From positions 41,602,001-41,666,000 of the forward strand of contig OZ024757.1 in NCBI GenBank assembly GCA_964016885.1: a stretch of DNA of 64,000 nt. Reading direction: 5' to 3'. How positions within the stretch are numbered: position 1 is the first letter of the stretch; each line of letters starts with the position of its first letter. Shown one piece after another: positions 30,561 through 63,502 of this stretch. The stretch is from Eledone cirrhosa. Lineage: Eukaryota. The translations under genes and the position numbers were made by a program. The notes beneath the pieces are model-generated. The model was not told the DNA's origin, ran no database searches, and saw only the letters and a list, made by a program, of their open reading frames with translations.

Positions 30561-31012
30561 TATATTAATAAGAGGAATTCCAACTTTGTCTGACTTACTC
30601 GTTTTATTTACAATCCTTTAAAATATATATAATGGTATTATAATGAAATAGTATGATAGAATATTAAATTCTAAGTGTTAATTGAACAAGTACTTTTATG
30701 CTTTCGCAATCTTCAGGTTCATGATATGTGGTGACAGTCGAGTTTGCAATTTTCAACTGCAATTTTCAACTTGCAATTTTCACAGTTGAAAATTGCAAAC
30801 TCGACTGTCACCACATATCATGAACCTGAAGATTGCGAAAGCATGAAAGTACTTGTTCAATTAACACTTAGAATTTAATATTCTATCATACTATTTCATT
30901 ATAATACCATTATATATATTTTAAAGGATTGTAAATAAAACGAGTAAATCAGACAAAGTTGGAATTCCTCTTATTAATATAATCTTCTATACACAATCAT
31001 ACACACCCGTGT
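30561..31012 (+). mobile_element. Foldback HHR element, family B: 199-bp inverted arms (30561-30759 / 30783-30981) plus short tail
   Basis: Reverse-complement arms with 2 visible mismatches; homologous to 55763-56013. Confidence 0.82.
30821..30859 (+). ncRNA. Minimal type I hammerhead ribozyme (family B)
   Basis: TGAAC-CTGAAGA-T TGC GAAA GCA T-GAAA-GTAC-TT-GTTCA; perfect 5-bp stem I, GNRA-capped stem II, palindromic stem III. Confidence 0.8.
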
Positions 31013-31066: not shown

Positions 31067-31460
31067 ATATTAAAATACAAATATTAATAAAATAGATGTT
31101 CTTTTGATCAATTAAATTTTGTTATACATATTTCAGAGGTACAACAGTACGTCCTCATCAGACAAAATATAATGATAAATGACATACCCTGAGATGTTAA
31201 ATGGTTACGATTTAATCAAGGTAACCATTTAACATCTCAGGGTATGTCATGTATCATTATATTTTGTCTGATGAGGACGTACTGTTGTACCTCTGAAATA
31301 TGTATAACAAAATTTAATTGATCAAAAGAACATCTATTTTATTAATATTTGTATTTTAATATTAATAACTCTGGAAAATTATTTTTTGTAGAGTACTTCC
31401 AATCTACTGTAAAACTCATTCTTTGATGTACTCATTGAATCTTGTTTAACTCTTTAATAT
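31067..31460 (+). mobile_element. Foldback HHR element, family C: 142-bp arms (31067-31208 / 31221-31362) plus ~100-bp tail
   Basis: Reverse-complement arms with a 12-nt loop; (TA)n on both flanks. Confidence 0.82.
31261..31313 (+). ncRNA. Minimal type I hammerhead ribozyme (family C)
   Basis: ATTTTGT-CTGATGA-GGA C GTAC TGTT GTAC C TCT-GAAA-TATGTA-TA-ACAAAAT; 7-bp stem I. Confidence 0.82.
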
Positions 31461-56939: not shown

Positions 56940-57440
56940 AAACATAACAACAACAACAACAGTAACAACAACATAACACAGGAGTAATGACAACGACAAT
57001 AACAACCACAACAATAACAGTAACAATAACAACAACAATGACAACAGCAACAATGACAAAAATTACAATAACAAGATAACAACAACAACAATAATGAAAA
57101 AACAACAATGGTAACAATAACAACAGCAACAATAACGACAACAACAACGACAAGATAACAACAACAATGACAAAATGACAACAATACAACGTCGTTAATG
57201 ACAACAGCAACAAAAAAACAATGACAACAATAATAACAACAATAACAGTACAAGATAACAATAACAACAGCAAAAACAATGACAACAACAATACAACAAC
57301 AAATGGCACCTGCAACAATAACAACAACAACGACAAAATAATAACAATAACAACCACAGCAACAAACAATAACAACAACAAAAACTACAACAACAGTAAC
57401 AAACAACAACAAAAGCTACAACAACAAATAATTACAACAG
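56940..57440. repeat. (ACA)n degenerate trinucleotide repeat
   Basis: Direct reading. Confidence 0.9.
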
Positions 57441-57446
57441 TACAAA

Positions 57447-57848
57447 GTAATTGTTTCTACTTTTGGCACAAGGCCAGCAATTATCTCAGTGTATTACTGG
57501 TACTTTATTTTATTGACCCCGTAAGGATGAAAGGCAAAGTTAACCCCGTAAAGGGCCATAACTCTGTGCTGTAAAGCATGGCGTCCGATGCTCTACCGAT
57601 ACTACCAATCCACTGCCCTAACAGTATCAAATAATGGTTTCATTTATTGGTCACAGAGGCGACATATAGGGGACAATACAAAGACAGGGACAGTGGGGGT
57701 GGGGAGTATAATAAAATTAAGTAAAAATACACAATAACAATTAATAATTGTTTCTATGTTAGGCACAAGGCCAGCAATTACCCAGTGTACCCAGTGTATT
57801 ACTGATACTTTATTTTATCGACCCCGTAAGGATGAAAGGCAAAGTTAA
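57447..57848 (-). mobile_element. Two OK-type SINE pieces (57447-57620, 57743-57848)
   Basis: Homology to 54155-54346. Confidence 0.78.
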
Positions 57849-57953
57849 TTAATAATGGAAATATATAAAATATATAAAAATATAACAAAATAAATGTTCT
57901 AGAAATACTGTATGTCATTATGACGTCCTTATGACTCCTCAGAAGTTTGGGTC

Positions 57954-58043
57954 CATATCTGAGGATCTTTCGATTCCAGAGTCAGCTTCGATCAACAATA
58001 GATCGTTCCTTGAGCTGATCGACAGTGAAACATATGTAATATG
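57954..58043 (+). ncRNA. Type I hammerhead ribozyme with multi-helix stem II (family N)
   Basis: CATAT-CTGAGGA-[61-nt structured stem II]-GAAA-CATATG-TA-ATATG; homolog at 63347-63431. Confidence 0.75.
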
Positions 58044-58104
58044 TTATTAAATATGTTATGATTCAACACTGACTTTTTGTTCCTTTATTCTTATACTATA
58101 TATA

Positions 58105-58311
58105 TATAACAAAGGAATTGTGGTAAGGAACCAGATGGACCATAACGCACCAGAGTACTCAATACTTAGGGTAGTAGAGTGGGAAATAGGAAAAAGTATG
58201 ACCCCGACGGCAGAGCTCAAGCCGTTTCGACAGCTATTTCTGGACAGAGTCCAGAGTCCAGAAATAGCAGTCGAAACGGCTTGAGCTCTGCCGTCGGGGT
58301 CATACTTTTTC

Positions 58312-58315
<4 letters not shown>
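58105..58315 (-). mobile_element. Foldback element (60-bp arms 58186-58245 / 58256-58315) plus tail; related fragment at 9248-9310
   Basis: Arms are reverse complements with one visible mismatch; contains a GTC-GAAA-CGGC-TT half-core; tail motif ACTC...TTGAGTACTC. Confidence 0.7.
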
Positions 58316-58367
<52 letters not shown>

Positions 58368-58981
58368 ATATATATATATATACCTGCTTCAGTCATCATT
58401 CCTTTTCCTTAAGTTTTTCTTTCTCTCTCTCTCTCTCTCTCCCTCTCTTTACCTTTATTTCATAACCTCACTCCCACTCTTCTTTCTTTCGTGCCTCATG
58501 AAGGACCAATATCCGATACTTCGTAGACATTTTACCTTTTTGAAGAGATGTGAACCTAATAACACATTTTGTAATTGTTGTCTCTGTTTGTTTGCACTGT
58601 TTTTATTGTTGACCTTGAACTATATAGATATATGTATGCGTGTGTGTGTGTGTGTGAGAGAGAGCGTTATGTGTGTGTGTGAGCATGTGTGTGTGTATCT
58701 AACCCTTGCAGGCAGAGAAACGGGCATCAATTATGTATGTGCTTATATATATATATATATATATATATGTGTGGTGGGGTGCATGTGTATGTATATATAT
58801 ATTCATACATATATATACATAGATATTTATATACATACATATATACATATACATAAATATTTATATATATATACATAAATATTTATATACATACATATAT
58901 ATATATGTACATATATACATATATATATATATATACGTATATAGGTATGTGTATATATATATATATATATACATATTTACG

Positions 58982-59013
<32 letters not shown>

Positions 59014-59312
59014 TACATACCTATATACGTATATATATATATATACGTATATATATATATATACATATATACGTATATATATATATATACATATATACGT
59101 ATATATATATACATATATACGTATATATATATATATATATATACATATATACGTATATATATATATATATATATACATATATACGTATATATACGTATAT
59201 ATATATATATATATACCTATATACACGTATATATATATATACATACCTATATACGTATATATATATACATAAATATTTATATATTTGCATACATACATTA
59301 AGATATACTTAT

Positions 59313-59369
<57 letters not shown>

Positions 59370-59736
59370 GAGTACTTGAACTTCCTCTAAATCACTAACT
59401 CCCATGATCCCTAGGGGGGCTTTGTAATTATCAATTGAAAAGGAGATTACCGATTTGTCATATTAGCCTTCAGCCATATTGGCAGTGATTAGGAAAGAGA
59501 AAAGGATTCTGGGAATCGGTTAATTGATTCAATGTGGAATTAAGGGGGAATAATCTGAATATAGAAAGCTTGGAGTTGAATTGTGGATTAGATTTGATTC
59601 AATAAAGGACATTTAAATGTTTAAGATGTTTGTCAAAAATTCTTCTTATAAAACTATTTCAGCAGCTACATAGATTGCAGTGTGGGTTTTACCTTAGGAC
59701 ATATAGGAGATACATAGGGAGAGACAGACATACTGA

Positions 59737-59789
<53 letters not shown>

Positions 59790-59955
59790 GTACATACACA
59801 CACATAGACTTAGGACATATAGGAGATAAGTAGGAACACACACTCATACTGATATACATATACATACACACACTTAGGGCATAGAGATACTTAGAAACTC
59901 ACACACACACATATATATATATATACCCACACATTTATGACAGAGATATACTGAA

Positions 59956-60046
<91 letters not shown>

Positions 60047-60193
60047 CACACTTAGGACATAGAGATAGACACACACACACTCACACACACACTTTTTTCC
60101 TCATGTGTTGACAGACTTGTAGTTAAAATTCTCCACGTTTTTCAGGTGACAACACTCTCTGCCTAATCTATCGTTTACACACACATACACACA

Positions 60194-60235
<42 letters not shown>

Positions 60236-60256
60236 CTCTCTCTGCCTCTCTCTCTG

Positions 60257-60293
<37 letters not shown>

Positions 60294-61685
60294 CTCTCTC
60301 TCTCAATCTTAAATCCTACTTTTTCCAAGTTGACAAACATTTTACACGACATGTACTACAGCTTTCAGAAAATAGATTTTTATAAAAATTGATGAAATAT
60401 TTTCTTTTAGTTTTTTCCTGCCAAGTTCCTTGTTCCTTATTTTTTTATCCGATTTCCAACATTTCCCTCACTTGAACATATTTCGCATTTTATTTTCATC
60501 TTTATTTTGAAAATTACATCTAAACAAATATCATCAGATTGGAACAAGGAGAAAATAATAGAATTTCAACAATTGAAATAAAATTTTAATTTGTATTTCT
60601 GCTTTTGTACCTTCTTCTTCTTCTTTGCCTTCTTCTCTTTGCCTTCTTTGCTTTCTTCTCTTTGCCTTCTTCTTCATCTTCTCCTTCTTCTTCATCTTCT
60701 TCTTCTTCTTCATCTTCTTCTTTTTCTTCTTCTCCTCCCCCTCCTCCACCTTCTCTGTTAGTCTTTTCCTCTATCTTATAAATTAGTCAAACGAAGAAAT
60801 TGTTTCACTCTTCTTCCGACATTTGGTGAATGGTTGGGTGGCTGGGTGGCTGGGATGTGGTGTGGTATGGACAGGGGTGGCTGGGATGGTTGGATGGCTG
60901 GGATGGATTTATTGGGGTATGGGAGGGCTTAGTGGTGGTGTAGGATGGTATGGATGGCTGGGGAGGCTGGGATGTGGTGTGGGATGGCTGGGTGGCTGTG
61001 ATGGCTTTACACTGGTTTGAAGGCTGTGGTGTGGTGAGATCGCTGGGTGGTGATGGTGGATAACTCCATGGGATGGGACTTAGTGCTAATACCCTACCAC
61101 CTCCCTTTCCTGGCTTAATACCTCCAACTTCACTCCCTAGCTAAATACTCTCCCCTCACATCCTTTCATGGCTATATACCCCACCACCACCCTGGCTAAA
61201 AGGTCTACTCTCCCCCACCTCCCTGGTTTAATACCTGCCCTACCCAATTGACATTTTGTTTTAGCTGTTGTTACTATTTCCTAAAATACAATATGTCTGA
61301 AACAGTCATTCTTTCCGTCTTCCATCTTATCTCTTCACACTTTAAACCTCCTCCAGCTCTCTCTCTCTCAACATTTGTGTCAGCAAATCCTGGCAACTTG
61401 TTAACTTATAATATAGAATAATTGTGAAAAGCTTCAAGGTAGGACAGTTTCAAAATAATCATTAAAATGCCACATTTGTTGAGAAAGTTCCATAATTTAG
61501 TTTTTAAAAGTTAATGTATTTTAAAATACACCATTGTCTTTAGTGTTATATTGAGATAATGAGGTGATTCTTTAAGAGATATTCTCCTCTAATTTAATAT
61601 TTATAAAGATATAATTGTTTTTAATAGAAGCTATATAGCATTATATAACTCCTTCACTCTCTTTCCCTCCCTCCCTCTCTGTATA

Positions 61686-61762
<77 letters not shown>

Positions 61763-61765
<3 letters not shown>

Positions 61766-61965
61766 TGATATTAAATAAATGGAAACTATATTTATAAAAC
61801 CATATTTATTCTATTATATATATTTCAAGGGTACCAAAAATTTTGGTACGCTATCATCAGATAAAATACAAAATGTTTTATAAATATTTGACATGACCAA
61901 GGATAATATACCTTAACGGTTCAAGTTATCCCTGGAAAGTCATTTCCATTTATTTAATATCAATT
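61763..61965 (-). mobile_element. HHR family A element with 23-bp inverted ends; HHR at 61805-61870
   Basis: Reverse complement TGTATTTTAT-CTGATGA-TAG C GTACCAAA ATT TTTGGTAC C CTT-GAAA-TATATA-TA-ATAGAATAAA; flank matches 1097-1156. Confidence 0.78.
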
Positions 61966-62039
61966 AATATCAAAAATCTGAATGAATACACACATGACTT
62001 TTTCTCAAATAATTTATTTTTTGTGATCATCTTTCTATT

Positions 62040-62181
62040 TCATATCTTCTTTCTCATTCTGTCTTCTGATGAAGGACTGGTGTCCAAAACGTAAAGACTC
62101 TTTTCCTACTATATTAAGCATTAAACTAATATATTTCTTCATTGTACTGTGTCATTTGCTTTGCTCTTTCCATTTATTTTT

Positions 62182-62185
<4 letters not shown>
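62040..62185 (+). mobile_element. HHR family I element (HHR at 62061-62098, G12 mutated to A)
   Basis: GTCTT-CTGATGA-A-GGAC TGGT GTCC-AAAA-CG-TA-AAGAC. Confidence 0.7.
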
Positions 62186-62230
<45 letters not shown>

Positions 62231-62232
<2 letters not shown>

Positions 62233-63250
62233 AACAGAGGAGTTTAAGACTGGCTGTCCATGGGAACTTCTCTATGCTGACGATCTGGCTCTTATGGCAG
62301 AATCAGTAGAGGAGCTAGAGAATAAATTCCGGCTATGGAAACAGCAGTTGGAAGCAAGAGGACTGAGAGTAAATCTAGCTAAGACAAAAGTGTTGATGAG
62401 TAGAAAAGAGGACAAAACCCTGATTCCGTCAGGGAAATGGCCATGTTCGATATGCAGAAAAGGAACTGGCATAAATTCTATAAAATGCACACAATGTAGG
62501 TCCTGGGTACACAAGAGATGTAGCGGGATAGCAGGCAAACTAACAGGTAGGGAGAAATATGTATGCAGTAGATGTACAGGGAAGTTAGACAGTAGAAGTC
62601 GCACTGATAGACACATTTTTCAAATGCGAGAGGGCGCTATAGAAGTGGTGGATAGCTTCCGGTACCTAGGAGATCAGATTAGCATGGGAGGAGGGTGTTC
62701 CGAGGCCATAGTATCTAGAATAAGGACGGGTTGGAAGAAGTTTAGGGAGCTGCTTCCTCTGTTGACGAAGAAGGGTTTCTCCCTGCGTACGAAAGGCCGG
62801 TTGTATGATGCCTGTGTGAGGAGCGCGATGCTGCATGGTAGTGAGACATGGGCAGCTACCGCAGAAGATATGCGACGGCTGGAGAGAAATGAGGCAAGCA
62901 TGCTCCGTTGGATGTGCAGTGTAAATGTGCGTGAACGACCCAGCATAAATGTGTTGAGAGAGAAACTGTGTCTGAGAGGGATAGAATGTAGTGTACGGGA
63001 GAGGAGACTGAGGTGGTATGGACATGTGATGCGCATGGAGGATGACCGATGGGTGAAGAAGTGCCAGGAAATGCCAGTTGAAGGAAGACGTGGTAGAGGT
63101 AGACCACGAAAAACATGGGCGGAGGTGGTGAGAACAGACCTCAGATCATTGAAGCTCACGGTGGAGATGACGAGGGACCGTGACGAGTGGAGAGATGCTG
63201 TGCTGAATAAGACCCGTCCCACCCTTGCAAGCAGGGAAAAGCGGACGTAA
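62231..63250 (+). CDS. 5'-truncated RTE-clade LINE ORF: C-terminal reverse transcriptase with an inserted PHD-like zinc finger
   Basis: ELLYADDL RT motif, GLRVNLAKTKV, CxxC..CxxC..HxxC..CxxC, FRYLGD, LHGSETW, RLRWYGHVMR, GRGRPRKTW; no stops in ~340 codons; (TGA)n tail to 63277. Confidence 0.92.
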
Positions 63251-63346
63251 AATGATGATGATGATGATGATGATGATATCCAGCAGGTGTAACGTGAAGT
63301 TACTGTAAGTTCACCCAGGTGAGCACTCCATCATTACAACAGCAGA

Positions 63347-63431
63347 GGTCTAACAAGCTTTTGATTCCAGAGTCGGGCCAGATCGTTACTGATCGAACCT
63401 TTAGCTGATCAATAGCGAAATGCGCATCACC
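63347..63431 (+). ncRNA. Degenerate family N hammerhead (core CTAACAA)
   Basis: GGT-CTAACAA-GCT T TTGA TTCCAGAG...AGCTGA TCAA T AGC-GAAA-TGCGCA-TC-ACC. Confidence 0.6.
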
Positions 63432-63502
63432 AATCAATAAACATAATGAAGGCTTAACAAATCATTCTTGTATTATTATATATATATCTATATATATGAT
63501 AT

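Follow-up and report, generated by a model that had tools for sequence, protein, structure and literature searches.

The stretch of Eledone cirrhosa DNA analysed here (the window; 64,000 nucleotides (nt) of contig OZ024757.1, positions 41,602,001 to 41,666,000 of the forward strand, assembly GCA_964016885.1) contains two related hammerhead ribozyme motifs with a long stem II, each at the 5'-truncated 3' end of what its sequence identifies as a Hydra-clade Penelope-like retroelement (PLE). That the motif is a PLE hammerhead is near certain; the uncertainty concerns the role of the long arm, not this identity. Both copies combine a type I layout with a palindromic stem III and a stem II of 59–61 nt (Table 1). 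The layout is complete in copy 1 (57954–58043, with a GUA site at 58036–58038) and the same in copy 2 (63347–63431), where the first box reads CTAACAA. A sequence-only reading of the window had described two diverged hammerhead copies, and all of the letters that it quoted are present where it placed them. The core of copy 1 is canonical, whereas that of copy 2 has decayed, and copy 2 is predicted to be inactive; this broken core was overlooked, as were the Hydra-clade host, the dimer-type stem III and the neighbouring poly(A) hexamer. The two window copies are fossils, and their own folds are no better than those of shuffled sequences (9 of 200 and 68 of 200 shuffles were as good).

The likeness of the two copies is not due to chance, because GATTCCAGAGTC occurs in the window only at these two places and two exact upper-stem-II patterns gave 5,500 and 3,326 genome matches, against none for reversed controls. 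A model made from 19 copies recovered copies 1 and 2, a match by construction, and no third full copy in the window. All data come from this one genome of 3.0 Gb. DNA searches with four different copies yielded ~1,800–2,900 first-look candidates each, which are not copy numbers, and a hidden Markov model (HMM) returned 8 hits, 6 of them near full length, from 600 kb taken unselected. From all genomic loci examined, to which the L-numbers below refer, 381 hits were collected, 321 of them full length; they fell into 25 clusters of at least two members plus 75 singletons. Fourteen of these clusters are treated as subfamilies, the other 11, which look like decayed subsets of A, H or C, having been set aside; remote subfamilies may have escaped this collection. 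Copy 1 belongs to subfamily B and copy 2 to subfamily A, and these two have 30 of 37 module positions in common. Paralogs are truncated at variable 5' points, often carry an inverted 5' copy and have (TA)n at their end. For copy 1, 83 paralog alignments begin at 57954, with ends clustered at 58097–58108, and remnants of an open reading frame (ORF) lie 5' of the motif in the paralogs L063 and L326. The inverted tail sequence joined to copy 2 recurs in L181, where it separates the hammerhead from the ORF start. Metagenomes scanned with the pattern and with the endonuclease gave no match. An Rfam search of the whole window produced, among the 150 of 403 matches listed, only microsatellite-driven microRNA matches, and microsatellites also dominated the repeat-finder output.

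Table 1. Coordinates of the two motif copies and their parts in the window.
Feature	Position	Strand	Remarks
Copy 1, whole	57954–58097	+	Truncated 3' end of Hydra-clade PLE, subfamily B; starts exactly at stem I, ends at (TA)n
Stem I 5' strand, CATAT	57954–57958	+	Partner ATATG 58039–58043; two-sided changes in 3 of 5 pairs
Catalytic box CUGAGGA (DNA CTGAGGA)	57959–57965	+	Canonical; 42 of 44 subfamily B copies
Stem II of copy 1, whole	57966–58026	+	Lower stem II, 2-nt bulge and upper module
Lower stem II, 5' strand	57966–57974	+	Partner 58018–58026; U.U at base, pyrimidine mismatch at pair 4, then 5-bp helix
Variable 2-nt bulge	57975–57976	+	TC, TA, TT, AG or CG in other subfamilies
Upper module, sequence-conserved	57977–58017	+	CAG/CTG helix, 2x1 loop, TC/GA, bulged pyrimidine, RG/CT pairs, variable 3x3 loop, GATC-loop-GATC hairpin
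GAAA box, palindromic stem III (ACATATGT) and predicted cut	58027–58038	+	GAAA 58027–58030, CATATG 58031–58036; predicted cut after A58038 (GUA)
ATTAAA, poly(A)-signal-like hexamer	58046–58051	+	8 nt past predicted cut; U-rich stretch next
Segment of the element's 5' UTR (its downstream tail), inverted and joined to copy 2	63276–63331	-	Typical of PLE insertions
Copy 2, whole	63331–63481	+	Truncated 3' end of Hydra-clade PLE, subfamily A; endonuclease remnant upstream in paralogs
Stem I 5' strand of copy 2, GGT	63347–63349	+	Partner ACC 63429–63431
Decayed catalytic box CTAACAA	63350–63356	+	G5 and G8 lost; family majority CCGACGA, 19 of 34 copies
Stem II domain of copy 2, 60 nt	63357–63416	+	Architecture as copy 1, few private changes; probability of CAG/CTG helix 0.83
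GAAA (63417–63420), stem III TGCGCA, TC, ACC (63429–63431)	63417–63431	+	Site after C63428
AATAAA hexamer of copy 2	63436–63441	+	33 of 34 subfamily A copies

The host element

Subfamily E, a sister of copy 2's family, retains open frames of 660–861 codons. At L181, the 861-amino-acid frame encodes a reverse transcriptase (RT; DDAL) followed by a C-terminal NIVY..YIG domain of the GIY-YIG endonuclease type, which is the layout of a single-ORF PLE. Inspected by eye, it contains RWR and DKT, the sequences CNCKKRAEC (CxCx5C), CRLC (CxxC) and CRH (CxH), and one cysteine between the GIY-like and YIG motifs. Hydra-clade elements are described as having an RWK-type motif, DKT, a CxCx5C linker, CxxC and CxH around the E and N residues, and no CCHH (Craig 2021, PMC8557442), and comparison by eye with this description finds the Hydra-clade ORF motifs in the L181 frame. 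Walking upstream from copy 2's own family led to a C-terminal endonuclease with the same CxCx5C linker, CxxC and CxH. Homologues mostly carry PF26215, and the element's best named protein relative is from Argonauta hians. A direct Pfam scan of the ORF pieces and the full ORF gave no match; the PLE ORF assignment therefore rests on motifs.

The motif lies in sense, 0.3–2.3 kb 3' of ORF remnants at loci of subfamilies A, E, F and B, and ~175 nt 5' of the ORF start in pseudo-long terminal repeat (pLTR) arrangements (L181, L183, L240). The other lineage, whose endonucleases are ~46–54% identical to those of the first, has the motif downstream in 4 of 10 extended loci. An inverted partner is present in 19 of 60 loci, insertion prefers (TA)n, and 38 of 39 measured copies end at simple repeats 41–64 nt past the cleavage site. 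In a tree of the endonucleases, from which 84 of 104 hits without a motif in reach were left out and among whose rows there is no named Hydra reference, the clade with the long motif has support of only 86/85 and includes two rows with other labels. Labels can also arise from nested insertions, and no order of events is claimed from this tree.

Two other origins were considered and rejected. Naiad elements, in which the HHR_half_core cases occur, have an N-terminal endonuclease and DKA, and are ruled out by the C-terminal endonuclease and DKT. Non-LTR retrozymes share with the present family type I hammerheads in animal repeats related to PLE ends, but in the passages available they are noncoding head-to-tail repeats of 170–400 nt, unlike the dispersed, 5'-truncated, ORF-linked ends of coding elements found here (PMC7229834; bioRxiv 10.64898/2026.07.22.740005). 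At L041, the first 57 codons of the ORF are joined 64 nt 5' of the hammerhead, as in an internally deleted, non-autonomous form.

Published PLE hammerheads already include examples from the Hydra clade and from an octopus element, Hydra-1_Obim of Octopus bimaculoides (Craig et al., 2021, PMC8557442, File S2). The E. cirrhosa motifs resemble the Hydra-clade examples in their sense orientation and type I layout near the 3' end, the short palindromic stem III, the (TA)n targets, the ORF motifs and, often, a U.U opposition where stem II starts. In the 26 published Hydra rows, stem II has 3–7 pairs and a loop of 3–10 nt; here, in contrast, stem II measures 59–61 nt with a conserved internal module, and U4C, A6U or A6a changes are fixed. 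Six short motifs of the long-armed family had no relevant match in the PMC8557442 supplement. Length alone has a precedent in the Selaginella PLE-X1 hammerheads (File S2, marked as deviating), with up to 9 pairs and a 35-nt loop in the stem II region; these belong to another clade and kingdom, and are single sequences for which no conserved module is described.

Cleavage of minimal PLE hammerheads as dimers was reportedly demonstrated by Lunse et al. in 2017, according to papers citing that work. As described in the passages available, minimal PLE hammerheads are type I with a palindromic stem III, dimer-dependent, slow and present as many sequence families per genome. The present family shares the layout, the palindrome and the many sequence families, and is predicted to share the dimer dependence and slowness; their helix II of 6–8 pairs with a highly conserved G10.1–C11.1 differs from the ~20 pairs of the present family, in which pair 10.1–11.1 is G–C in 4 of 14 subfamilies (Cervera and de la Pena, 2014, PMC4209133). 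The 4–8 helix II pairs starting with G10.1–C11.1 that mark the dimer type are thus absent. No description of a conserved stem II module was found in the literature searched, which included the accessible passages of PMC7229834, PMC10085705, PMC13725137, PMC13282606 and bioRxiv 10.64898/2026.07.22.740005; Lunse 2017, Arkhipova 2017, the Cervera 2014 supplement, Repbase and Dfam lay outside that search.

Stem II: a rod with a conserved upper module

RNAalifold, applied to two alignments, predicted stem II to be a rod composed, from its base, of two pairs, a mismatch, a five-pair helix, a 2-nt bulge, an NAG/CTN helix, a 2x1 loop, TC/GA, a bulged pyrimidine, RG/CT, a variable 3x3 loop and a GATC hairpin. 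With three helices around the core and stem I open, this model has 87.7% of its cells paired and two-sided change in 13 of 29 pairs, against 28–39% paired in slid controls. The NAG/CTN helix has a probability above 0.6 in 13 of 14 subfamily majorities, and the rod as a whole is favoured in 13 of 14. In the G lineage, CAG/CTG has become TAG/CTA. Six of the nine lower-helix pairs show two-sided changes.

The sequence-only reading had proposed a different fold, in which TTCCAGAG forms an invariant, single-stranded bulge between two helices and acts as a functional element. This is the lowest-energy fold of stem II in copy 1 (probability 0.60), the only place where it wins; in all 14 subfamily majorities its probability is at most 0.13. 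The 8-mer is exact in only 99 of 321 full copies, other subfamilies having the variants TTATTGAG, TTACAGAG, ATCCAGAA, AAGTAGAA, GTCTAGAG and TTTCAGTG, and most of it is paired: its first T closes the lower helix, and its CAG pairs with CTG. The base formerly paired with the T of TCRG covaries instead with that first T (12 of 14 subfamilies, against 8 of 14). The closing pair of the proposed fold survives in 8 of the 14 subfamilies and its fifth pair in 3, and the six-pair TCAGCT/AGCTGA helix, which is 74% paired with no two-sided changes among 19 sequences, needs a C at 57986 that is private to a few copies (a DNA run shows G for 10,879 of a depth of 11,519, or 94%). Failure of further copies to conserve the bulge or helices had been named as a ground for refutation, and those copies contradict a single-stranded bulge, which is now hardly credible as a functional element.

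What was borne out is the broader claim of a hammerhead with a conserved stem II accessory domain under selection. Parsimony steps per column number 2.33 in the lower helix, 2.50 in the bulge and 3x3 loop and 2.12 in the terminal loop, compared with 0.50 in the upper module, 0.25 in GATC/GATC and 0.73 in the catalytic core. The upper module thus equals the catalytic core in invariance, even though it is linked to endonucleases of only ~46–54% identity, and it changes 4–10 times more slowly than the adjacent loops and the lower helix. Because the steps per column differ in this way, the lower helix appears to require no more than pairing, and in the upper module it is the sequence that is maintained, which suggests recognition by a protein or a tertiary partner. 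A census of unselected DNA by the core alone found four 61-nt hits, all with the module, which partly offsets the bias of sampling by pattern and HMM.

These rates also bear on a simpler explanation, that stem II is a tolerated insertion for which any stable rod would do, its letters reflecting shared descent or a role in DNA, such as that of a pLTR promoter for the downstream ORF. PLE promoters do lie in pLTRs, according to the passages available (PMC6765202); a mechanical search of 664 kb gave hammerhead hits whose stem II spans 11–97 nt, and GATC/GATC and CTCGAG show no compensatory change. Against it stand the slower evolution of the module relative to its neighbours and the fact that its occasional changes mostly keep pairing, and we regard this explanation as improbable. 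The same spread of stem II lengths fits growth in place, and the proposal that the domain had been grafted onto the ribozyme has no support: no Rfam family matched it, the best E-values of targeted scans (K-turn, box C/D, SECIS and others) being 0.54 and 2.5, far below gathering scores. By eye, stem II presumably does not fit the k-turn and SECIS geometries either.

Two further pairings were rejected. A switch pairing the TTCCAGAG segment with CUGA of the core appears in minimum-free-energy folds of A, B and F, and is not a conserved pairing because C, J, I and I2 have CCGA against TCAG. A pseudoknot between AGG of stem I and CCT is contradicted by registers that vary from family to family and by the existing pairing of CCT.

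Core, stem III and the role of the long arm

CUGANGA and GAAA boxes with a UH site are found together in copy 1 and in subfamilies B, D, F and H; subfamilies A, C, E, G, I and J have variants, and the core of copy 2 does not conform. The majority sequence of every large subfamily retains C3, G5, G8, A9, GAAA and the UH site. Changes fixed in whole subfamilies are U4C, A6U or an extra base after A6. Among 60 copies picked by stem II only, the core was readable in 40, of which 12 are canonical, 10 read CCGUCGA, 11 have an extra base and 7 have other forms of U4C. CCGUCGA (U4C plus A6U) occurs in 20 of 23 copies of subfamily E and, on a separate branch, in 9 of 42 C-type copies. In the passages available, natural variants reported to be slow or tolerated include U4C, A6C, an inserted A6a and U10.1.U11.1, and A6U is not mentioned (PMC3088659).

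Stem III is exactly self-complementary in three unrelated sequences (CATATG, CAATTG, CGCGCG) and self-complementary with G.U in CGATTG; it is imperfect in subfamily G. Short palindromes of this kind are a signature of dimer-type PLE hammerheads in the passages seen (PMC4209133, PMC6765202). The duplexes have predicted energies of -6.4 to -13.3 kcal/mol, and stem I has a probability of at most 0.38 in all 13 monomer folds. The sequence-only reading had listed paired changes in both stems and in the palindrome; these changes stand for stem I, for the lower part of stem II and for the palindrome of stem III, except that TGCGCA of copy 2 is best read as a CpG-decayed form of its family's CGCGCG, so that this change is partly post-insertion mutation.

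Downstream of the site, A(A/T)TAAA is present in 198 of 222 copies across 14 subfamilies, against a background of 2.8% per 22 nt, and lies 7–9 nt past the predicted cut in 12 of 13 measured cases. Inserted copies span the cut site in 58 of 60 cases (one could not be scored and one stops just past the site), which indicates that the template was uncut there. Their ends form two classes, a cluster 41–64 nt past the site and, in 18 of the 60, a longer tail. The Poseidon PAc element of the lizard Anolis offers a parallel: in the passages available, its hammerhead cleaves only with PLE protein and is dispensable for insertion in vitro, and uncut template RNA with two internal RT starts gives a short end plus a tail (Frangieh et al., 2024, PMC11167929). 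By analogy, the two end classes suggest a similar pair of RT starts here. The same passages make no mention of an extended stem II, and the Poseidon PAc ORF starts inside the ribozyme, unlike the ORF start ~175 nt downstream found here (PMC11167929). PLE hammerhead motifs are described as slow and dimeric (PMC4209133, in the parts accessible).

The reading that we favour, and consider modestly probable, is that of a slow, dimer-dependent, protein-assisted hammerhead, in which upper stem II likely binds the RT-endonuclease of the element and cutting would strip the poly(A) signal. The 8-nt palindrome would pair between two motifs, in tandem pLTRs or in two transcripts, forming stem III. Cleavage would be slowed by U4C, A6U and the extra base after A6, so that most RNA would stay uncut, and uncut read-through RNA would be the template for reverse transcription, with starts ~50–60 nt and ~130 nt past the site. 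The lower helix may act as a spacer; the upper module would be read by its sequence. The most likely reader is the protein of the element, which would also assist folding of the motif. Any cut that did occur would separate the ORF-bearing RNA from the hexamer and poly(A) tail.

Several observations weigh against this reading. Full-length monomer folds are mostly no better than those of shuffles, and the core is often paired with stem II. The central pairs of the rod rest on one or two evolutionary events each among related sequences: C–G changes to U–A in one lineage, and G–C to A–U in one subfamily, 3 of the 14 being unpaired there. Most pairs of the module are constant and therefore provide no covariation. 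The CAG/CTG helix is weakened (probability 0.04) in subfamily E, yet E has the longest open frames, and the G lineages break one GATC pair. Sampling by HMM and pattern favours conserved modules, and the tree of 14 subfamilies was built from the same region of a single genome. As for the binding partner, these data do not discriminate between the element's protein, stem I and a host factor.

Stem I is the partner in the nearest alternative, in which long stem II would be a protein-free tertiary-docking arm that packs on stem I, for example on the A-rich loop that bears the hexamer, and stabilises the active fold, so that the core would tolerate U4C, A6U and the insertion. The near-invariance of the hexamer and the pyrimidine mismatch kept at pair 4 in most subfamilies would suit such an arm. 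The conserved module, however, lies 10–25 pairs from the core, presumably outside the usual contact zone; no convincing Watson–Crick covariation links the two arms across the 14 subfamilies, and own versus cross pairing of the distal long stem I gave a permutation p of 0.07, with no such pairs in the RNAalifold prediction. At the canonical place for a loop 1–loop 2 contact, these motifs have no loop. Stem I–stem II contacts are the rule in natural hammerheads, and in the passages seen they are thought to offset core variants (PMC3088659). Docking of this kind is possible but doubtful.

The core variants allow another interpretation, in which several lineages no longer possess a ribozyme and keep the fold only as an RNA recognition signal for retrotransposition. 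CCGUCGA is fixed in subfamily E, the subfamily with open frames of 660–861 codons, and occurs in part of the separate C-type branch, and inserted copies span the site. Such a loss is difficult to reconcile with the retention of C3, G5, G8, A9, GAAA and the UH site in all large subfamily majorities, or of the palindrome through three sequence changes; moreover, U4C, A6C and the A6a insertion are slow but active in natural ribozymes, as far as the available passages go, which do not include A6U (PMC3088659). We consider it unlikely. A combined view, held tentatively and with more hesitation than the favoured reading, is that the hammerhead may be a protein-gated switch, in which PLE protein on the stem II module decides between a cut before the poly(A) signal and a whole template, the A6U lineages, which arose twice, being non-catalytic recognition scaffolds.

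Hammerheads in PLEs cut poorly, and inserted copies derive from uncut RNA. The 14 subfamilies form a natural series, in which a separable 40-nt module is conserved like the catalytic core and the core's U-turn drifts, and the series therefore makes cleavage versus protein recognition directly testable. Descriptor searches limited to a short stem II would miss thousands of motifs in such genomes.

Other hammerheads and repeats

Type I hammerheads of other families occur in the window at 1194–1381 (an inverted pair), 1941, 19050, 30716–30826, 31161–31268, 34208, 49671, 55831 and 61860. Their stem II measures 12–32 nt, stem III is palindromic and inverted pairs are frequent, as expected of other PLE ends. 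Elsewhere in the genome, mechanical hits include families with a stem II of 49–60 nt or longer. A Hydra-like family with an 11-nt stem II (L329, L234, L241) has the CAATTG palindrome and U.U base of the long family and a distant endonuclease. At L325 and L083, a hammerhead-like match whose stem II region spans 103 nt lies 551 nt past the end of a Hydra-like ORF, and may represent another long-armed family. Tandem arrays with periods of 468 nt and ~550 nt (L248:6165–9714 and L249:184–4396, both in G000:C3 near 200.07–200.09 Mb; L232) carry a short hammerhead in each unit and are retrozyme-like.

Directly after copy 1, an inverted pair derived from another repeat occupies 58110–58315. Fuller copies of this repeat (L007, L101, L170, L186, L343) are hammerhead-like, with an unusual first box (CTTGANAA-like), a stem II of ~55 nt and a closed 5-pair stem III. 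Directly before copy 2, 62230–63275 is an open 3' fragment of a LINE reverse transcriptase (YADD) that ends in (GAT)n and that we take to be of the RTE type. Copies of a very abundant SINE-like repeat lie at 57440–57620, 57740–57850 and ~62060–62200, and ~62067–62098 is a decayed short hammerhead in which AAAA replaces GAAA.

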